64,000 nt of DNA from assembly GCF_024521635.1 (NCBI RefSeq), contig NW_026250412.1, forward strand, positions 620,001 to 684,000, in the 5' to 3' direction. The notes under the pieces were generated by a model that saw only the letters and a program-made list of their open reading frames with translations, searched no databases and was not told where the DNA came from. The translations under genes were made by a program, and so were the position numbers. Positions 20,689 to 62,320 of this stretch are shown here, piece after piece (positions within the stretch are counted from its first letter, which is position 1; the number at the start of each line of letters is the position of its first letter). Origin of the DNA: Tricharina praecox (taxonomy: Eukaryota).

Positions 20689-21438
20689 TTATGCGAGGAA
20701 GAGAGCCCCAGCGGCGGCGATGACAGCGATGAGCGAGAAGCTCTTGGCCGACGCGGCACCCTCGTAAGTCTCGGGGACGGACGAGGGGGTGACGGGAGTC
20801 GACGTGTTGAGGGGGATGTCAACGACACCGGTTCCGCTGGGAACGTAGCTGGCGTAGGTCGGGTAGCCGGTACCGACGGGGACGCTGGGAGAGCCATAGA
20901 CGGGAGTGTCGACGGGGGTCTCAACCGGAGTGTCGACGGGGGAGCCGTACGAGGGGGTCTCGACGGGGGTGTCAACGGGAGATCCGTAGGAAGGAGTCTC
21001 GACCGGAGTGTCGACGGGGGTCTCGACCGGAGTGTCGACGGGGGAGCCATACGAGGGAGTGTCGACGGGGGTCTCGACGGGGGATCCGTAGGAAGGAGTG
21101 TCGACGGGGGTCTCGACGGGGTAGTCGGGGGTGTCAACGGGGGTGTCAACGGGGGTGTCAACGGGGGATCCGTAGGACGGAGTCTCAACGGCAACGGGGG
21201 TCTCGACGGGGTAACCCTCGGTGGTGGTGCACGAGGTGGTCGCGACAACGGGGGTCTCGACGGGGTACTCGACGGCCGGGGTGGTGTAGGTGGCGGCGGT
21301 GGCCGGGCACGAGACGACATCGGGACCGCACGAGGTGATGGTGACGACCTCAGTCTCGTAGACAACCTCGGGGTTAGGGAGGGCCATGGCGGCAGCTCCG
21401 AAGAGCGCGGCAGAAGAGGCGATAGTGGAGAAACGCAT
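20689..21438 (-). CDS. Secreted, probably GPI-anchored Pro/Thr/Val-rich repetitive cell-wall protein
   Basis: Signal peptide MRFSTIASSAALFGAAAMA; EVVTITSCGPDVVSCPA motif; tandem PVET/PVDT/PSYGS repeats; C-terminal YEGAAS followed by a hydrophobic tail, typical of a GPI signal. Confidence 0.9.
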   Translation of the reverse strand: MRFSTIASSAALFGAAAMALPNPEVVYETEVVTITSCGPDVVSCPATAATYTTPAVEYPVETPVVATTSCTTTEGYPVETPVAVETPSYGSPVDTPVDTPVDTPDYPVETPVDTPSYGSPVETPVDTPSYGSPVDTPVETPVDTPVETPSYGSPVDTPVETPSYGSPVDTPVETPVDTPVYGSPSVPVGTGYPTYASYVPSGTGVVDIPLNTSTPVTPSSVPETYEGAASAKSFSLIAVIAAAGALFLA

Positions 21439-33155: not shown

Positions 33156-34550
33156 ATGTCCAACGACGCCGTTGAGAATCACGAATCCGCTGGTATTGAC
33201 GATAATGCCGCTTTCGATGCCAACTTCCAGAATCTTCACATCGACGAGCATGGAGAAGACGGCGAACACGAAGGTGCTCGCACCGAGGAGGAATATGCCA
33301 TTGCTCCCCTCACCCTCCGCGCCATAGTGTCCTCGAAGGAGGCCGGCGTGATCATTGGAAAGGCTGGAAAGAACGTGGCCGATCTCCGCGACGAAACCGG
33401 TGTCAAAGCTGGTGTCAGCAAGGTGGTGCCGGGCGTGCATGACCGAGTGCTCACCGTCACTGGTGCTCTCGAGGGCATCGCCAGGGCTTACGCTATGGTT
33501 ACGCAGACCTTGTTGGAGAATCCCCCCAGCACTATGACCGCGGCTCCCATAGGCCCGCATCGTATGTCCTTCCTATTCGCTACTTAGCCATGTCTTCTTT
33601 GCTAACCATGGTGTATTTTGACAGCCGTTCGTCTGCTCATCTCGCACAACCAGATGGGCACCATCATCGGACGTCAAGGTCTCAAGATCAAGCACATCCA
33701 GGATGTTTCCGGCGCCCGCATGGTTGCGCAGAAGGAAATGCTTCCCCAGTCTACCGAACGTGTCGTGGAAGTCACCGGCGATGCTAATGCCATCCGAATG
33801 GCTGTCTGGGAGATCGGCAAATGCTTGATCGACGACTGGCAGAGGGGCTCCGGCACTGTTCTGTACAACCCTGCTGTCCGTGCTCAGGGTGGAGGATCTG
33901 CGCCCAGCAATGGTGGTGAAGAGCGCACACCTCCTAGGGCTGGAATGGGGTACTCTGGCGAGCGTGGTGGAGAGCGCGGAGAGCGCGGCGAGCGTGGAGG
34001 TACTCGGTCATATGCCCGAACTGGAAACGGAACCGACTTCTCCGATGCCACTCCATCTAGGCGAAATGATGCCGGCCTGCCGCAGCGTTTTAACGATCGC
34101 AATGACCGTGGCGACCGCAATGACCGTGGCGACCGCAATGACCGTGGCGACCGCAATGACCGTGGCGACCGCAATGACCGTGGCGACCGCAACGACCGCA
34201 ACGACCGTAACGACCGTAACGACCGCAACGACCGCAACGACCGTGGCGACCATGGATCCCCTGGAGCTGTTCCCCAGGGAGAGGACGGAGATGACTACCA
34301 GACGCAGAACATTTCTATTCCTGCTGATATGGTTGGCTGCATCATCGGCCGTGGAGGCACCAAGATTCAGGAAATCCGTAGAGCCTCTGGAGCGAGAATC
34401 AGCATCGCCAAAGCGCCCCACGATGACTCCGGCGAGAGGATGTTTACCATCACGGGATCGGCGCCCAGCAACGAGAAGGCTCTTTACCTACTGTACGAGA
34501 ATCTTGAGGCTGAGAAGCAGAGGAGGAACAGCCAGGGAAGCCCCGAGTAG
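33156..34550 (+). CDS. Three-KH-domain RNA-binding protein (hnRNP K/PCBP-like; Pbp2/Hek2/Rnc1 family), intron 33562-33624
   Basis: KH1 LTLRAIVSSKEAGVIIGKAGKNV; KH2 VRLLISHNQMGTIIGRQGLKIK; KH3 QNISIPADMVGCIIGRGGTKIQEIRRASGARISI. Confidence 0.93.
34092..34250 (+). repeat. Coding tandem repeat: 18-bp NDRGDR units followed by 9-bp NDR units
   Basis: aatgaccgtggcgaccgc repeated about 5-6 times, then aacgaccgy units. Confidence 0.95.
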
Positions 34551-51886: not shown

Positions 51887-54800
51887 ATGGCATCCATCTG
51901 GAACTGGTTACAGGCACCGGCCCAAGAGCCACGGTGGACTCCAGTTCGAACACTCCGGATTTGCTCTATCCCATCGCTTGTTACGGGAGAAGAGTTCAGG
52001 GCCTACCTGACGGAACTACTCGGATACGCCGATTTCCTTCTCTCCTTCGTCCCTTCAAAAGACGGCATAGTAGCAACTGTTACTCTCGTGAACGGGGAGC
52101 CGGCAACTCTTTCAAAATGTTCCACTGGCAAAAGGGTGTACCTGCCATACCGGGAAACAGTAGTCGGTCTCACAGTTGACTGACTTTCTCGGAATGACGC
52201 CTTTATACAGCGCGGAAGAGCCGGAAGTAGAGTAGCGGTGCCCACCATCCTTACTACCTACGTTGATTCAGAAGGGCTGATGGACTTCCAGTATTGTCGC
52301 TATCACAGGCCTCGCTGGCCACGCATATGGCTCCTGGAAGGCGCGGGACCATCCGTGGATGTTGTTACGGGACTTCCTGCCGACAGATTTGCAACAAAAC
52401 GGTCACAAAGTCAGAATTCTCACCTTTGGCTACAACTCAGCCCTGCTTGAGAGCACGACCACATCTTCGATCCAACACTTTGCGAGAAAGCTTTTTGACA
52501 GTCTGAAAAGGGAACGCACTGGCGAGAATGTAAGCGGGCCGGGGGCAGACGGGGGGGCGAACTTCGTTTGACAGATATCATTAGGAACGGCACCGTCCAA
52601 TCATCTTCATAGGCCATAGCCTCGGTGGCTTGATCATCAAGCAGGTAGGCAACGTTGCGCTTCCCGTAACATGTATTCAAGCTCATCTTTGCAGGCACTC
52701 GCAGATGCATCGCAGAAAAATGAACAGTACTACGAGGACGATGCAGTGATTCTATCCTCGTGTACGGGCCTCTTTTTTTTCGGCGTTCCCAACCGGATAC
52801 TCAATGTCGAAAACTTGAGGGTTTTGGTGAAGGACCAGAAGAATGAACACTTCATCAACGACCTGAGGGAAGGCTCGGAATTCCTATGGCAGTCCTACCA
52901 ACGATTCACACAATGCGTTGAGCTTAAGGGTTGCCAGGTCACGTCGTACGATGAACTCAGAGACACCCAGTCTGTGGTCATTGACGCCCGCACCGGGCTC
53001 TGGAAAAGAAGTGGCGAGATGATTCGGATCGTGACACGAGAATCCGCAACATACTCTCTTCCCACAGACCCCTTACACAAGCAGTTGGAATTGATGCCGA
53101 CCATTCAAACATGGTGAAATTCACCGACAGCCAGGACGATCGCTATCTCCAAGTATTGGGGAGACTGTCACAGTCTATTGGGAGCGCTTCGATCATTATC
53201 GAAGCCCGCATACATGAAGGTACGTAGACTTTCATCACGCGGTAGATTGGTCGCGGATCAGCGGGGGACGGTGCGAAAAACTTCGGGAATGATTGAGATG
53301 GAGTAAAGGGTAGGAATGAGAGGGGTGAGGGGTGACGGTAATGGATGGGCCGACACAAGGAGAACTAGCATTAAGTATTCTCGTACCGGCGCTGACGATC
53401 TTCTAGTGATAAAGCCCGTGGTCATGGTGCCCTCGAGTATGAATCCGGATTTCGTTGGGAGAGAGGAGATATTCCGAAAACTTGAATCGCTGCGGCCTCC
53501 CAAAGGTGGAAAGCAATTACGGCGGGCCGCACTGTATGGACTTGGAGGAATAGGGTAAGGTCTTAGCCCACGAGACACGGATCCCCAATGGACGTGGATT
53601 TTCAGTGAGCATCCAGACATGACTGCCCATGGTACTACACTGCTGCTGAACGTCCGCGTCCACTGGGTGACAGATATCTTGTCACATTTGTTTTTGAGTA
53701 GATTTACTAACTCGACTAGGAAAACTTCGATAGCGATTGGGTTTTGTTACCGAAGACACAAAGCTCATCCGCAAGCTCACACCTTCTGGCTACACGCCGA
53801 TTCGCACGAAACCTTCAATGACAGCTATCTGGAGTTGAGGCGCAGAGCCAAGCTCTTGCGTGACGACGACCCGGACGAAAAACGGCCGTTGGAGCGCGTG
53901 GAGGAATGGCTGGAGAGTTCGGCCAGCGGCGACTGGACGATTATTATCGATAATTTTGACGAGGCCGACTCATACCTCGCGAAACACCTTCCACTACAGG
54001 GCGGGGTGATCTTGTATGCAACACGCGACCGGAGGCTCATCGGGAATGCTCAATACGTGCCGTCCGGCGCTGGAGTCAATACTGATGCTATGAGCGACAA
54101 GGAAGCATTGGAGATGTTTACAAAGGTTTTGGCTGCCGATGCATCTGCCGCCCTGATGGATACCGAAGATGCCCATGAACTGCTGGGTCGGCTGGAGAGA
54201 CTGCCCCTAGCAATAGCTCAAGCAGCAGCATTTACAAAGGAAACTGGGGTTGCGATCTTGGAGTATCTCGAGGCCTTCAGCAAGTGTGACAGCGAGTAGC
54301 GGTTGCTCTTGGGTGACGAATGGTCAGTGGTACAGGAAGGCGGCAAGCGAAGCGCGGCAGTGACTACCTGGAAACTCACCGTCAACAAAATCCAGGAGAA
54401 GAACCCTGCTTCTGTGCAGCTGCTAGAGGTCATGAGCTTCCTCAGCCCAGATGACATACCAAAGGAATTCCTAAAAGGTGTGCCATTCCTCAGCAAAAGC
54501 GACGCACTCTTCCACACGACTCTTGCACCTCTTCTGAGCTTTCCCATGATCTATCGGCTCGAATCGTCAAATTGTCGCCTGCATCGCCTCGTCGGGTTAT
54601 GCGTCCGGACAGGTGTGCATTCGGAAGACCCAGGCTTTCAACGTAGGAATGTGCTCCAGGAGACAGTCCTTCCGTTGCTAAACAATCGTTTCCCGAAATA
54701 CGACATTCGTGCGAATCACCGTGGGTGTATGTCCCTAGTACCGCATGCAGTCGCCGCACTAGGGCACATCACCGGTGACTCTCAATCTATTGAGGCCGTG

Positions 54801-55530
54801 CTTCTTCTGCAGGAGAACCTGGGGTTAATTCTGGATGAAAGTGGGGACACCACAGGCGCCCAGATGTGATACCAGCGGGCACTTGATGGCCGTGAGAAGT
54901 CCTTCGGAAAAGACCACCCTGTCACTTTCGATACCGTGCACAACATGGCCAATACTTTTCGGCAGCAAGGGGATTATGACAAGGCATTGATGTGGTACCA
55001 GTGGGCATTAGACGGATATGAGAAGTTCCTCGGAAAAAGTCACCCAAGTAGCCTCGGTACCGTCTACAGCATGGCCGTGGTGTATAAAAACCAAGGGTAT
55101 TATGACAAGGCATTGATGTGGTACCAGTGGGCACTTGATGGCCGTGAGAAGATCCTCAGAAAAGACCACCCCGACATTCTCTATACCGTCCAGAGCATGG
55201 CCAACACTTTTCAGCAGCAAGGGAATTATAACAAGGCCTTGGTATGGTACCAGCGGGCACTGAACGGATTTGAGAAGACCCTCGGAAATGACCACCCCAA
55301 CACTCTCCAAACAATCTACAACATTGCCCTAGTTTTTAAAAACCAAGGGAACTATGACGAGGCCTTGGTGTGGTACCAGCGGGCACTGGACGGATTTGAG
55401 AAGACCCTCGGAAAAGGCCACCCAAACACTTTCCAAACCATTTACAGCATGGCTGTAGTGTTTCAAACCCAAGGGCACCACGACAAGGTCTTGTTATAGT
55501 ACCAGCGGGCGCTTGATGGCCGTCGAAGCT
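51887..55530 (+). pseudogene. Disrupted fungal NLR: N-terminal domain + SesB-like alpha/beta hydrolase + NB-ARC + TPR repeats
   Basis: IVAITGLAGHAYGSW; LRDFLP; RILTFGYNS; RPIIFIGHSLGGLIIKQ; DADHSNMVKF; NPDFVGRE; Walker A GLGGIG|KT; WTIIIDNFD; LPLAIAQAAAF; LHRLV; 42-aa TPR units. Frameshifts at ~52181 and ~53083; in-frame stops at 54297, 54867 and 55497. Confidence 0.88.
54867..55530 (+). repeat. TPR array: five 126-bp units plus a partial sixth
   Basis: WYQ(R/W)ALDG.EK.LGK.HP... recurs every 126 nt from 54867 to 55497. Confidence 0.9.
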
Positions 55531-57272
55531 TACTCGCCGACAAGATCGATGAGCGATTGACGCCGAGCGACATATGAAATCCCGTGGACCTGAGTTCACC
55601 CGAGTTGATGTCGTGTAAGTCCTCGTCCTAAGACAGACGCTTGGATGTGGGAAAGATCTTCTAACGGTACTCCTTTCAGTTTTCGGATTCTCGGCTTTTC
55701 TTTACGAACTTTTGCACTTGTGGCTTTGGCTTTGATGTTGCAGCGGAAATCGGCGCATTATAGAGGACCGTCGCAAGCCCTGGGGATGGTATGAGGCGGC
55801 GGTGGCGGGTGTGGAAACGGGGTGAGATAAGCAAAACGGCGGCGGCGGCGGGGGGGTGGATAGCTCGTGGCCTCGAAAGTGTATGGATAGGCGGGGGATG
55901 CTCGGAGCGGTGGCATGTTATTAATGAAGTTATTGCTTGCTTACTCCTTTTATGAAACATGAACCATGCGAGCCCCATCAGTTTTCCCATGGGCGATAGG
56001 AACCGCCGCGCCTTCCTCCCATCAGGCGGATTACGTACCGGCCTCTTAAGGATCAGGTCGACCCCATGGAGAAACCTGCTGGCCCACGACGAGGCCGGTA
56101 GGCGCTATTTGTTGTTGCCCGATTACCCACTTCTGATATACATACTATTTAGAATGGCTAGAGCGAATATGTTTAATGGCTACCCTGCTCCAGCGCCAAA
56201 CGCGGATACAGGACCGCTGCACAACCGCCACCATTCCGGCTTGACATTGGGCACTACTGATAGCTATCCGGGTGAGAGGAATTTAGAACACCTCCAATTT
56301 CTCTTGTCCTCCTTGAGTAAGCAATCACACTTTCCGCTACGCACCCTGCCGGCCCTACCGCCATCCTTTATGGCACCAGCCCAGTCTTCGGTGTAACTGG
56401 TAGATAGATGGCCTACTCTAATGTAGCCGATGTGCGCACGCTGCTGAGACGCAGGACGGGAGCTACAGTGAATCTATGGTACTTGCGCCACTGTTCTGGA
56501 CAAGCCCACTATGAATCTATGGAGGCTTTTCTTTCCTCAATTTTCTTTCTGTTATATGGGCAAACGAGTTACAACTTACCTACGCGCGAAGATAATCGTC
56601 GAGAGAGACGGGACCACACTTGATTGTGGATGGTATTCGAATGCAGTTCGGCTTTGATGGGCTTTGGCCGCGCCCTCGTTTCGTGGGTTGTTCGGCGTTA
56701 ACGGTCGTCAATGAGACGCCGGCCAGCAAGCCACCGATGCTCATACGGTTTCACGTTACATACTCTACTGTGTTAACTCAATCGGATTGCATCCAGCTGA
56801 CTGAATTCGTATCAAGAACTTCGCCAGGGCCCAGGACAACTGTGCGCGCTGATTGCGGCGTAAATACCCAGACCGAACGCTTTGAAACAGGTAAACAAGC
56901 TGCCCTCGAAACGAGAACTAACACTAATCATTTGACATCTATCTGTAGATTCTTTATTGGCGAAGTTTCGTGTGTATGGCTGCAGAGTCGTGCAACTTGC
57001 CTCCCTCACCACCTCTCCATGATTCCGTGCATGACAGCAATTCCACCGCTCACTGGATTCCACAGCGAGACTCACAGCGCATACAGACTCCTTCTCATAG
57101 GTTGAAATCTCAGCCGCCTGCAACTCCTCCTGCGGTGCAACAGACGACGAGAACAAAAGCCACAACTGCCCCGTGGCCAACACCAGCAGCCAAACCTCCA
57201 GAACCCAAGTAATCGACCTTGATTTATCCACCCTTTTGAAGCCATTCCAGCACGCCTACTACGAGAGTCACG

Positions 57273-60200
57273 ATGAGGAAGTTCTTTCTATATTTTCGAC
57301 GTACGAGACGTAGCCAGCGGGCGGTTTCGTCAATCGGAGAGGATCGGCCACGGCCCCCCGCGTCGAATCATCCCCTATCGTCTCCAGCAATTATAGCGAT
57401 TACCCCAACAGAAATACCGCAAGCTCTGCCGGGTACTTCTCCTCCACCTCCAGAGCCTGTTATGTCGGATGTTGCTCCTCCGCCTCCAGCTGAGCCGGTT
57501 CTGCCGGATGCTTCTCCGCCATCTCCAGAGCAGGCGGTTTTTCGTGTGTCCTCCGCGGGGGGATCCGCAGCCGTGATCCCACCCCCTGATCTCCGGATCT
57601 CGTAAGCCACATTTTTCCTTACGACGCCATTGCTAGTGAGGCTAATTGCGAGTGCATCAGAGCCGACTGGAAAGCTGCATTCTTCATCGCTAAAAAGAAG
57701 CTATCCGAAGACGAATGGAAACAGATCAATCCCGAGTCATCGCCCAGCCATATCGTGGATTCTCCGATGAAGGCCGCAGAAGATGCGAGACAGAAAATGA
57801 AGGAAAAACAATGGACCTATACCGATAGCAGAGGGAAGAAAGTCGTCGTACGAGACAAAGTCGAGAGGATCTTAACAAGTATCGAGACGTATGGAAAAGT
57901 TGTCGATACGGCGATCCAGAGTAATCCGGAAATATGGTCAGTCTGACTACCAGCTGCTTGTCATGTAAAAAAAAAAATCTGACAGAAAATAAAATAGTGC
58001 GCTGGTGTGGGGAGCTGCTCGCTTGATTCTTCAGGTTCGTCTTATACCCGGTATCGTGCTAGCTGTACTACATGTATTCCAACTGATAGAAAATAGGTTG
58101 CTCTCAATCACTTTCAGGCATTGGAGAGCTTGGAAAAAGCAATGGGGATTATCCTCCTAAAGATGGCGGATTGCGAGTTCTACGCAAAAATCTATGTCGA
58201 GTCCTTGCGGCAGACTACACTCAACTCCGACCAAAACAGTGCTGCGTTTCAGAAAAAAGTCGAGTCTGCTCTACCTGAGTTTTACTCCGCGGTGCTGGTA
58301 TTTTCTGTCAAGGCAAAGGCGTATTTCCTTCCGATGGGCTCCGGTGAGTTTAATTTCCAAGACAAACGGTAGCAAGGACTTACATGGTGATTTTTATCGC
58401 GCACTTCAGCAAAGTTCACGAGCCCGTTGAAGCCGTTTTCAGTCTACTTTGCGGCCTTTGTCGAGGATATAGATAAGAGCGAGCGAACGGTTCGAGATTG
58501 CGCAGATATGGCAACGATGGAAAAGATCAAAGGTATAATTACTACTTGGTTATCCTCCGTCTTTCTATCCATCACGATCCGAATCGACGTTGGAAACATC
58601 GACTTGCTGGCTTCTAACAAACTTCAATAGGCAACTCCGAGGATCTTAAAAAGATGCAAAAGCTTTTGAGCGAGCTGAAGACCCAGGTTGCTCCCTTGGA
58701 ACGGATAAACGGTGGGTTCTCATTTTCAAATTTACACACTCGATATCTTGTGTGAACATGCGTGCGAAACCGTGATTTTCGCATTGGGTTCTTTTGTGCA
58801 TCTAGCTGACGCTTTTCCGCACGTCAACTGGTGTTGGTTCTGCCCTATGATCACGGCATGCTGATTGCATATGGTGCCTTTCATAGACATACACGAAGGT
58901 GTAAGCAAGCTCGTCCAACACCGCGAGACTGAGATAGACGGTACGTACGACCTGTCCCGATGTTATTTACCCTAAGTTCGCCGAACAAAAACCAATGATT
59001 CCCAGAAACTATGGCACGGGACCTTCGCAAATTTCGGCTCTGGATCGCGGGCGCGGATCCTGAACCGGAGTTCCGGAAAATCGCGGAATGTCGACAAGAA
59101 GGGACTTGTACCTGGATTTTGCAAAGGAAAGAGTACATTGACTGGCTGGAGGCTGCGGAGGTACGGCACCTTTTGATAAAGGGAAAACCAGGTATGTGCG
59201 CCTGTAACTCGGCGACGAATTAACCGGATAGATCCGCTGATGCTACTGAAGGCGCTGGGAAATCGGTTCTCTCAACTTCCATCCTCGAGAACATGCAGAA
59301 GCTGGATGGAGTGCAAGTTTTGTACTTCTTCTTCAAGAACGGCGACCCGAAGACCTCAACTACAGCTGAGATGATAGCGAGCATCGTCGATCAGCTTGTT
59401 ATGTCTACGATCGCCTCTCGGGAGGTGAAGGAACGGTTGATTGAGGTATTGAAGAACGGGCATAATACCGACAACTCGTCCACATTCAGATCCGTTCCCA
59501 AACTTTGGGAACTGTTCACCAATATGCTCCATGCCGTTCCGTTCAAAGTCATAGTTCTCATCGACGCGCTGGACGAATGTATCGATTATTCTCTTGTTAC
59601 AAACCATGTGGCTGCGGCGGTTAGTAGCGCAAGGTTCTTGGTAACCAGTCGTCCGGAGGATCAGATATCTGTGGAGTTGGAAAATGCCCCGGGCCTATCT
59701 GTCGTCGAGATGGACGTGAAAAGCGATATTCGCGACTTCATCGCAAACGAAATCACAGACGATCAACTTTTGCAACAGTTCAAGGAGCCCATCATCTCAT
59801 CGGTTGGCCAGAACGCCGACGGGATGTTTCGATACGCCGCGCTCATGCTCGAAGAGCTCAAGATTTCAGACAAAAAAAAGATCCCCGCCAGGCTCAAGAA
59901 CATGCCGAGAGGACTTAATGGAATGTACGAATCCATGTTGCTCCGTTTGGACCGGAGCCAACATGCTGCAGAACTACGCCGAGAGGTATTGATGTGGGTT
60001 GCGATGGCGAAGAGGCCAGTGACGGTAGACGAGATGGCATATGCCTACGGGACCGAGGTTGGAGAGGAAGAATTCGATCCCAACGCTATAAGACTCGCTG
60101 ACCGTACACAAATCCTGAATGCCTGCGGCTCGTTGGTCGAGATATTTGAAGACACAAAGCTTCGATTCACCCATTTATCCGTGAAAGAATTCCTTCTTCA

Positions 60201-62271
60201 GTCTCCGCAAAAGTTACTCAACCAAAACGAGCGGATAAAGTCCTGTTTGGTGGACCCCATGGAAGCACATGTGTTAATTGCGGAAACATGTGGTAGGGAA
60301 AACGTTCCATTATGCTGCAGAATACCTAAGCCCTGAGATTTAACCATGAGTGCAGTCACCCAAATTTCTTCAAAAGTTTTTCGTGGTATATTCGATCGAT
60401 ACGGCAACAATCCGATCGAATTCTTGCCATTCCGCTACTCTATCGTCAACTGGCTACTGCATGTTTCGGAACTCGCAGCGGAAGAGGACGTCAACCCGAC
60501 TACAGAGTGTTTGTGGAATCTTGTCACATCTTTTCTGGGATCCTATACACTATTTACGAACTGGCGCATGATTTTCCCAACCTACGAAAGAACGCATCGC
60601 GGGTGGTGCATGTATCAACCTAAAGATATTCACCCTCTTCATATCGCTGCTTCATACGGCGTCACGTACACGATTAATCAACTCATCAGCGGAGGGGGCA
60701 ATTTCAATGTGAGAGACAGTCTTGGGATGTCGCCGCTATCGTGGGCAGCCAGATGTGGACATAAGGAGGTGGTACAGTTGCTCCTGGTCCGAGACGACGT
60801 GGAAGCGGACTCGAAGGACACCAATGGCCGGACACCGCTATCGTGGGCGGCCGAAAGAGGGCACGACACGGTGGTGAAGTTGCTCCTGGTCCGAGACGAC
60901 GTGGAAGCGGACTCGAAGGACACCGGGGGCCGGACACCGCTATCGTGGGCAGCCATATATGGACATAAGGAGGTGGTACAGTTGCTCCTGGTCCGAGACG
61001 ACGTGGAAGCGGACTCGAAGGACACCAATGGCCGGACACCGCTATCGTGGGCGGCCGAAAGAGGGCACGACACGGTGGTGAAGTTGCTCCTGGTCCGAGA
61101 CGACGTGGAAGCGGACTCGAAGGACACCAATGGCCGGACACCGCTATCGTGGGCGGCCGAAAGAGGGCACGACACGGTGGTGAAGTTGCTCCTGGTCCGA
61201 GACGACGTGGAAGCGGACTCGAAGGACACCAATGGCCGGACACCGCTATCGTGGGCAGCCATATATGGACATAAGGAGGTGGTACAGTTGCTCCTGGTCC
61301 GAGACGACGTGGAAGCGGACTCGAAGGACACCAATGGCCGGACACCGCTATCGTGGGCAGCCATATATGGACATAAGGAGGTGGTACAGTTGCTCCTGGT
61401 CCGAGACGACGTGGAAGCGGACTCGAAGGACACCAATGGCCAGACACCGCTATCGTGGGCGGCCGAAAGAGGGCACGACACGGTGGTGAAGTTGCTCCTG
61501 GTCCGAGACGACGTGGAAGCGGACTCGAAGGACACCAATGGCCGGACACCGCTATCGTGGGCGGCCGAAAGAGGGCACGACACGGTGGTGAAGTTGCTCC
61601 TGGTCCGAGACGACGTGGAAGCGGACTCGAAGGACACCAATGGCCGGACACCGCTATCGTGGGCAGCCATATATGGACATAAGGAGGTGGTACAGTTGCT
61701 CCTGGTCCGAGACGACGTGGAAGCGGACTCGAAGGACACCAATGGCCGGACACCGCTATCGTGGGCAGCCATATATGGACATAAGGAGGTGGTACAGTTG
61801 CTCCTGGTCCGAGACGACGTGGAAGCGGACTCGAAGGACACCAATGGCCAGACACCGCTATCGTGGGCGGCCGAAAGCGGGCACGACACGGTGGTGAAGT
61901 TGCTCCTGGCCCGAAGCGACGTGGAAGCGGACTCGAAGGACACCAGGGGCCGGACACCGCTATCGTGGGCGGCCGAAAGCGGGCACGACACGGTGGTACA
62001 GCTGCTCCTGGCCCGAGGCGACGTGGAAGCGGACTCGAAGGACACCAGGGGCCGGACACCGCTATCGTGGGCGGCCGAAAGCGGGCACGACACGGTGGTG
62101 AAGTTGCTCCTGGCCCGAGGCGACGTGGAAGCGGACTCGAAGGACACCAATGGCCAGACACCGCTATCGTGGGCAGCCAGACGTGGACATAAGGAGGTGG
62201 TACAGCTGCTCCTGGTCCGAGACGACGTGGAAGCGGACTCGAATGACACCGGGGGCCGGACACCGCTATAG
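57273..62271 (+). CDS. Fungal NLR: Pro-rich N-terminus + Goodbye-like helical domain + NACHT + ankyrin repeats, about 10 exons, apparently intact
   Basis: The spliced frame is open throughout: WKAAF; KQWTY...VVVRDKVERIL; ALVWGAARLILQ; RQEGTCTWIL; Walker A GKPG|AGKS; YFFFK; Walker B VLIDALDEC; FLVTSR; ADGMFRYA; CGSLVE; FTHLSVKEFL; PLHIAASYG; 15 ANK units. Confidence 0.92.
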
Positions 62272-62320
62272 TGAGCGGTCGCGAGCGGGCACCAAAGGGT
62301 GGCGCAGATGCTCCATTAGC
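60733..62320 (+). repeat. Ankyrin array: 15 near-identical 102-bp (34-aa) units plus a degenerate 16th
   Basis: ccgcta recurs exactly every 102 nt from 60733 to 62263. Confidence 0.97.

Follow-up and report, generated by a model that had tools for sequence, protein, structure and literature searches.

A spliced NACHT–ankyrin NLR gene of Tricharina praecox, with a probable DUF7708/Goodbye-like N-terminus, whose highly conserved repeats vary by a two-state head block

The locus discussed here raises the question of what kind of sensor is built from 15 closely similar 34-aa ankyrin units, and whether two adjacent residues that vary between them act as a code. It lies in the window, a 64,000-nucleotide stretch of the Tricharina praecox genome (contig NW_026250412.1, positions 620,001 to 684,000), and all coordinates below are window positions. 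A preliminary description of the sequence had proposed an NLR sensor read through the di-residue xx in the motif SWAA-xx-GH. The array ends a fungal NLR of the NACHT–ANK type, with a probable DUF7708/Goodbye-like N-terminus, that is intact and spliced, and the sensor varies by a two-state head block, not by a free two-letter di-residue code. The array pattern as such has already been described in fungi (Dyrka 2014). Minor points of interest are the head block with its two states and the combination of such repeats with a Goodbye-like N-terminus.

The gene was modelled by hand (Table 1). All nine introns have GT..AG borders, and the start codon was placed by alignment to residue 1 of P0001, the Wilcoxina mikolae protein K440DRAFT_663812. 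The extension encoded by exon 1 is probably disordered. The domain that follows was assigned via P0001, the N-terminus of which matches Pfam DUF7708 (E 7.6e-12, above the cut-off) and NACHT_N (E 5.9e-7, at the cut-off), and Atlas neighbours of P0001 residues 86-335 bear DUF7708, Goodbye or NACHT_N; exon 2 of the window gene, with exons searched singly, gave only a weak, sub-threshold match to Goodbye (E 0.0055). Exon 9 matches NPHP3_N (E 9.9e-21) and GPIID_WHD (E 4.9e-7), with NACHT itself at just E 0.085, and the Pfam NACHT profile scores E 6.1e-6 on P0001. The window gene carries both the Walker A pattern GxxxxGK[ST] and the Walker B aspartate, by which the NOD of NACHT-type STAND proteins is recognised in fungal NLRs (PMC13449251 section 6).

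Table 1. The NLR gene, its domains and its ankyrin array, in window coordinates
Feature	Position	Strand	Basis or remark
NLR gene	57273..62271	+	10 exons, 1429 aa, no internal stops; hand-built model
NLR gene, exons 1-5	57273-57601, 57661-57936, 57998-58034, 58097-58343, 58410-58532	+	hand-built model
NLR gene, exons 6-10	58631-58711, 58887-58940, 59006-59191, 59252-60292, 60356-62271	+	hand-built model
Proline-rich N-terminal extension (exon 1), aa 1-109	57273..57601	+	sequence
Probable DUF7708 / NACHT_N (Goodbye-like) N-terminal domain, exons 2-5	57661..58532	+	via homologue P0001
NACHT-type NTPase with winged helix	59006..60292	+	motifs and profile matches
Walker A GKPGAGKS, aa 442	59182-59265, interrupted by intron 8	+	sequence motif
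Walker B IVLIDALDE, aa 545	59551-59577	+	sequence motif
GPIID_WHD	about 59971-60201	+	Pfam match, exon 9
Divergent first ankyrin repeat	60628..60729	+	two helices, model residues 3-10 and 13-21
15 ankyrin units of 102 bp (34 aa)	60730..62259	+	reading frame 60337-62271, TRF, Pfam
Higher-order duplication, exact over 408 bp: units 8-11 repeat units 4-7 (ER ER IY IY twice)	61036..61851	+	100% over 408 nt
Decayed 16th (C-cap-like) repeat	62260..62319	+	TPL, then TAG TGA, 14 ankyrin-like codons, TAG

Four of the seven public runs listed (X1-X4) were compared with the window over 57200-60879. Single contigs of X2 and of X3 skip all nine introns, whereas intron-skipping joints are absent from the DNA runs X1 and X4, and the gene is thus transcribed and spliced as modelled; X2 and X3 stem from two separate studies and are RNA by guess, none of the listed runs being recorded as such. 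In X2, and again in X3, one spliced contig leads from exon 1 into unit 1, which places the tripartite order of N-terminal domain, NOD and repeats on a single transcript. No indels were listed for the covered stretch in any of the four runs. Together with the conservation within the array, this domain order bears out the earlier view of the locus as an NLR whose ankyrin sensor shows high internal conservation (HIC).

Among 77 longer homologues of the NACHT exon, the closest is P0001, from a genus of the Pyronemataceae (Pezizomycetes), followed by proteins of Trichophaea, Geopyxis and Sphaerosporella. P0001 is 57% identical over aa 1-901 and 72% over the NACHT exon, and it shares both the domain order (DUF7708/NACHT_N, NPHP3_N/NACHT, winged helix, ankyrins) and the 34-aa scaffold SWAA-xx-GH…LLL.RDDVEADSKD. 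It differs in its array: the deposited protein, which may be truncated, has about three units (RA, EK, EK) with the common EAVVR start of helix 2, and relative to it both head types of the window array are derived. As a side observation on the NACHT search, 8 of the 16 top matches come from the basidiomycete Serendipita vermifera (36-40% identity) and rank above most ascomycetes, a patchy distribution.

TRF reports the array with a period of 102, 15.2 copies, 90% matches and a score of 2258, and Pfam Ank matches it with E 2.9e-126. From unit 1 to unit 15 the di-residue reads RC, ER, IY, ER, ER, IY, IY, ER, ER, IY, IY, ES, ES, ES, RR, exactly the order claimed before. The units had also been called almost identical in DNA, which is true within a class but not overall: mean pairwise identity is 89.6% with a minimum of 79%, and the array contains nine distinct DNA units, with full identity in 10 of 105 pairs and no variation in 77 of 102 columns. 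At the protein level, mean pairwise identity is 0.86 over 510 aa, beyond the HIC threshold of more than 85% across at least 100 aa, as measured pairwise and not by T-REKS.

The units fall into two classes by their heads. Class A (seven units) combines xx = RC, IY or RR with GH-KEVVQ, and class B (eight units) combines ER or ES with GH-DTVVK, once DTVVQ. The linkage noted earlier between KEVVQ and RC/IY/RR and between DTVVK and ER/ES is accordingly present, with the exception of unit 13, a recombinant that reads ES-GH-DTVVQ. The hairpin variants TN/TG/TR and GR/GQ were found as described, with N, G or R at unit position 32 and R or Q at 34, and further variation occurs at V/A20, D/G/S22 and K/N29. 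Comparison of an IY with an ER unit shows 14 differences, four of them silent, all of which lie within nt 18-46 (29 nt), the remaining 73 nt being identical; none of 200,000 random placements matched this clustering. Between blocks A and B about half of the silent sites differ, and the difference includes three framework residues beside xx. In a four-gamete test, 22 biallelic sites gave 62 incompatible pairs, none of them within the head block, which indicates that heads and hairpins reassort and that heads are rarely split. The joint inheritance of xx with the helix-2 residues and the four silent sites would follow from the shortness and strong divergence of the head, which would seldom be split.

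Reshuffling of repeats, as proposed before, is thus seen in the incompatible pairs and in the four-unit duplication, and run X3 has a different unit (below). At a shift of four units, the array contains an exact run of 435 nt. Neither head block has a recognised donor: at up to three mismatches, the genome search returned 8 and 7 matches, all within the array. The best other ankyrin locus in the genome search is at most 48% identical over the 136-aa query, and the two nearest NACHT paralogues (on C61 and C39) are without a HIC array in the stretches examined.

These observations bear directly on the notion of a cipher, in which each di-residue would read one element of a periodic ligand, such as a nucleic acid, a glycan or a repeat protein, and ER-ER-IY-IY would match that ligand. 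The array does resemble TALE repeats in its near-identical 34-aa units with two adjacent variable residues, its unit states are few and recur with period 4, and X3 adds a new di-residue, MN. However, xx is bound to the rest of the 29-nt head, and the period is explained by one recent, exact 408-bp duplication of units 4-7. Moreover, among the best 120 database matches to the array, a set biased by being found through likeness to it, 93 have at least four units of equal length, 61 of these being of 34 aa; in the 27 arrays of 34-aa units with at least 70% internal identity among those matches, the most variable columns are 32, 8, 31 and 9, and columns 12, 13 and 16 are low (0.13-0.22). Variability at xx is hence generic, and the variable start of helix 2 is the less usual feature. 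The array also differs from TALEs in having the ankyrin fold (by Pfam and Foldseek), with the di-residue tied to a wider block, and neither DNA binding nor a cipher is indicated. In the literature, differing repeat combinations yield the same specificity in the Podospora WD40 case (PMC12222747 section 15), and a screen for TALE-like architectures, as excerpted, judged a TALE-like mode of action improbable for ankyrin repeats and left them out (PMC5472282). A di-residue code is hardly credible, and this part of the preliminary description is not supported.

The first repeat and units 1-7 were modelled with AlphaFold from the single sequence; the best model reached a pLDDT of 91.2, the other four 39-62. 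In the best model, helices span unit positions 2-9 and 12-19, and xx sits at the end of helix 1. Helix 2, which bears the linked K/D, E/T and Q/K residues, is presumably the outer helix. Foldseek aligned the model with the extended DARPins 6mol and 6mok (TM 0.91-0.92, rmsd 1.4-1.5 A), and the units are thus predicted to fold as an ordinary ankyrin solenoid, with the divergent first repeat as the likely N-cap.

The DARPin register allows the variable sites to be placed. DARPin libraries randomise positions 2, 3, 5, 13, 14 and 33, and in the register of the DARPin sequence excerpted from PMC8248824, unit positions 8, 9, 29, 32 and 34 correspond to DARPin positions 13, 14, 33, 3 and 5 (further background in PMC8683736 and PMC6130421). 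Five of the six randomised positions hence vary in the array, as judged by sequence register and not by computed exposure. By the same register, the variable sites fall on the inner helix and the hairpin, that is, on the concave face, as in HIC-repeat NLRs, and both model and register place xx and the hairpin at canonical ankyrin binding-face positions, in line with the recognition surface proposed earlier. In addition, unit positions 12, 13, 16, 20 and 22 vary, which are framework positions; the linked K/D, E/T and Q/K residues correspond to DARPin framework positions 17, 18 and 21 in helix 2. The likeness to DARPins is one of fold and of binding-face positions. DARPins are artificial, with 33-aa units, two to three internal repeats and both caps, whereas the window array has 15 units of 34 aa (one extra loop residue) and also varies at framework positions 17, 18 and 21.

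Selection on the array was assessed by pN/pS over the nine distinct units and by a count of minimal events. The changes had been described as mostly non-synonymous, which holds as a count (19 non-synonymous against 7 synonymous minimal events) but does not exceed chance on 73.4:25.6 sites (P=0.65), with pN/pS at 0.94 for the whole unit. A comparison of groups of codons gave a modest excess of non-synonymous change at the binding face: the six a-priori DARPin-equivalent codons show ω≈2.9 and the framework 0.49, the P value of 0.021 resting on 26 events in non-independent, recombining units. For xx alone, compared with the silent sites of the head, ω is 1.7 and the excess is not significant (P=0.26). 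Across ten arrays of the genome, the window array has the lowest pN/pS, the others ranging over 1.19-5.04.

Other strains were compared through the same public runs. For X2, no differences from the window were listed, and X1, a soil run, differs by one SNP in the unique part. X3 has seven SNPs in the unique exons, six of them non-synonymous (P=0.49 against neutrality), and with the low-depth run X4 included, 14 of 16 non-repeat SNPs are non-synonymous (P=0.24), neither proportion being significantly above the neutral one. Several SNPs in the non-repeat exons (57273-60729) change charge, namely E457K, K601E, D614G and E834K in X3 and E402K and E410K in X4, the latter at low depth. Within the array of X3, unit 1 shows V936A and D938N, and the last full unit has E changed to K. 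It also contains a SWAA-MN-GNDTVVQ unit that is absent from the window, and the sensor is therefore polymorphic between strains; this comparison concerns unit content only, since the contigs collapse the array, and the lack of ER and IY heads in the X3 contigs carries no weight because contigs drop variants. A loose end in X4, RK-GNDTVMQR beside a head, possibly belongs to another organism and was left uncounted.

The end of the array invites another reading, in which the gene is a relaxed or decaying NLR: slippage and conversion would generate the pattern as a by-product, framework constraint would leave variation on the surface, and the gene, its C-cap lost, would be drifting yet still transcribed. 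TPL and a stop occupy 62260-62271; TAG TGA stands in place of the Ser-Trp of the other units, and this double stop deletes the last repeat. The first of the two stops is also present in the X1 and X3 contigs and is thus not a sequencing error of the assembly. The array-wide pN/pS, the six of seven non-synonymous SNPs in X3 and the three in-frame stops of the neighbouring TPR-type NLR would fit as well. Yet the gene keeps an intact frame of 1429 aa, its two Walker motifs and every splice site, the four runs list no indels in the covered stretch, and ω is 0.49 in the framework against 2.9 on the binding face. RIP or CpG-driven mutation was considered as a source of the changes and rejected, as no signature was seen: the composite RIP index is -0.02 for the array and -0.51 for the 5' part, and among 17 allelic SNPs, two lie in CpG and two in CpA/TpG context, counted by eye. 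The absence of a RIP-like index also speaks against decay, which is on balance unlikely.

The number and order of the 15 units are as read from this one assembly, and it could be asked whether the unit types are real and their count and order, above all the 408-bp duplication, a product of assembly. The 435-nt exact repeat exceeds short-read length, short-read assemblies of HIC NLR arrays are described as unreliable (PMC12222747), and the depth of repeat pieces in X1 is about 0.25-0.6 of that predicted for 15 units (observed/predicted 1.2/4.8, 2.7/6.0, 6.2/11.7, 4.6/9.2 and 3.0/4.9, for pieces assigned by hand to unit types). The low depth could mean that the allele is shorter, that GC content biased the reads or that the assembly is over-expanded. 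However, X1 is one SNP off the window in the unique part and could represent a different allele, and the depth of a contig does not give its copy number. In X2, the collapsed IY unit has a depth of 6.1x, whereas 15 units predict 7.1x and an array lacking the duplication 4.5x, and the value discriminates neither way. Against an artefact, two longer arrays, of 26 and 31 units, are resolved in the 38.4-Mb assembly of 104 contigs, which suggests that it was built from long reads. A misassembled count or order is thus very unlikely.

Arrays of this kind occur elsewhere in the genome, for which the counts are lower bounds drawn from genome searches and 43 stretches. Forty other ankyrin-bearing stretches were chosen among 150 of 161 matches, and splitting by motif, with the window as the 41st stretch, recovered 27 arrays from 21 of them. 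In nine of the 40 others, mean DNA identity within an array reaches 87% or more, with up to 26 and 31 units; several of these nine have di-residue sets of their own (e.g., KG/EE/GR/EG), and in three of the nine a NACHT match lies within the stretch. One of the stretches, L069 (G000:C39:1064000-1072500), has a 35-aa array of 31+6 units with di-residues EE, GR, KG and EG and several hairpin states; 27 of its 37 units are distinct, making it combinatorially richer than the window array. L083 (G000:C29:61500-71499) and L085 (G000:C29:80500-86500) are nearby 35-aa arrays of 17 and 26 units with identical units in common, which suggests duplication or exchange between the genes, and L085 contains a near-exact internal duplication of eight units and hypervariable hairpins. 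Ankyrin matches with the same scores run in mirrored order along two contigs, G000:C19 (about 684-692 kb) and G000:C34 (about 235-243 kb), and may stem either from a segmental duplication of recent date or from duplication during assembly.

Fungal precedents for such a sensor come mainly from Podospora, where most HIC work has been carried out so far. In the excerpts of Dyrka 2014 (PMC4986451), high internal conservation marks 10% of the ANK domains of fungal NLRs, in units of 33-34 aa. In Podospora, the number of ANK repeats ranges from 7 to over 16 among isolates, positive selection acts on five positions, and the variable sites lie on the inner helices and the hairpin, with shuffling inferred to alter the interface. 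The window gene resembles these Podospora ANK NLRs in its NACHT domain followed by near-identical ankyrins, its concave-face variable sites and its polymorphism between isolates. It differs in its DUF7708/Goodbye-like N-terminus, a type that the excerpted text calls seldom linked to HIC repeats, in two deeply diverged head blocks that extend into helix 2, and in a weak selection signal drawn from one allele. The precedent cited by the preliminary description, HET-E/HNWD, is the WD40 case alone, the ankyrin case being already published (PMC4986451 section 17). Like HET-D and HET-E (PMC12222747, PMC13449251), the window gene has sensor repeats that evolve in concert, with hypervariable sites and with arrays that differ between alleles; those proteins combine a WD40 propeller with a HET effector, in contrast to the open ankyrin solenoid here, and genome searches found no close paralogue of the window gene for inter-gene exchange. 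HIC arose repeatedly and fits a general immune role, and only some NLRs are het genes, according to the excerpt of PMC13449251. Goodbye-like domains share an MLKL/HeLo-like bundle, with killing described as unproven in the excerpt of PMC9815663.

Taken by analogy with these systems, the gene may be read, with a probability of about 0.75, as a fungal HIC-type NLR in which ligand binding along the concave groove frees the NACHT domain, which then oligomerises so that the N-terminal domains signal or kill. The scaffold is homogenised, with two old head blocks and several hairpin variants reassorted. Unequal crossing-over and gene conversion would change unit number and order, and selection would favour changes where helix 1 ends and in the hairpin, on the concave face. 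The row of xx and hairpin residues may form one continuous groove, the ligand of which would be non-self or altered self and most likely a protein. Once bound, the ligand would release NACHT for nucleotide exchange and oligomerisation, and the clustered helical N-terminal domains could then trigger signalling or cell death. The helix-2 residues (KE..Q / DT..K) are probably passengers or stability partners and not a code. Several results count against this HIC-type reading: neither the whole unit nor xx shows an excess of non-synonymous change, and the pN/pS of the array is the lowest of the ten compared; a C-cap-like repeat has been lost to stops, and the mostly non-synonymous SNPs also fit relaxed selection; only one of five AlphaFold models is confident; Goodbye-like domains are described as seldom joined to HIC repeats, with their killing activity unproven; and both head patterns are confined to this array, with no close paralogue found for the exchange of units.

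A bolder version holds that the head blocks are ancient, selectively maintained cassettes that recombine whole with separate hairpin modules, forming a natural two-module library in which unit order, and not composition alone, would set specificity, possibly for a periodic ligand. If so, the sensor could be re-programmed by permuting units; this is quite unlikely. The gene alone leaves the knowledge of fungal NLR sensors unchanged. It is a tidy test case, being expressed, with no close paralogue found in its genome, two head types, few hairpin types and at least one natural alternative allele, and it allows the question of unit order versus unit content as the determinant of specificity to be asked directly.

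In the ORF list for the next 9.7 kb downstream, inspected by eye, no adjacent effector gene was recognised. Upstream, at about 52000-55560 on the plus strand, lies a second NLR-like gene with Pfam matches to DUF7779 and TPR. By their motifs, its N-terminus is judged to be hydrolase-like and its P-loop NB-ARC-like. Its 126-bp TPR repeats (54863-55510) show 75% matches, and with at least three in-frame stops (54297-54299, 54867-54869 and 55497-55499) it is probably a pseudogene. The two NLR genes form an island after the housekeeping genes CLU1, dynactin p62, ARPC4 and FIT. Elsewhere in the window, coding-like tandem repeats occur at 20899-21191, with periods of 12/39/51/102, and beside KH domains at 34092-34243, where they are of an Asn-Asp-Arg type with periods of 9/18.
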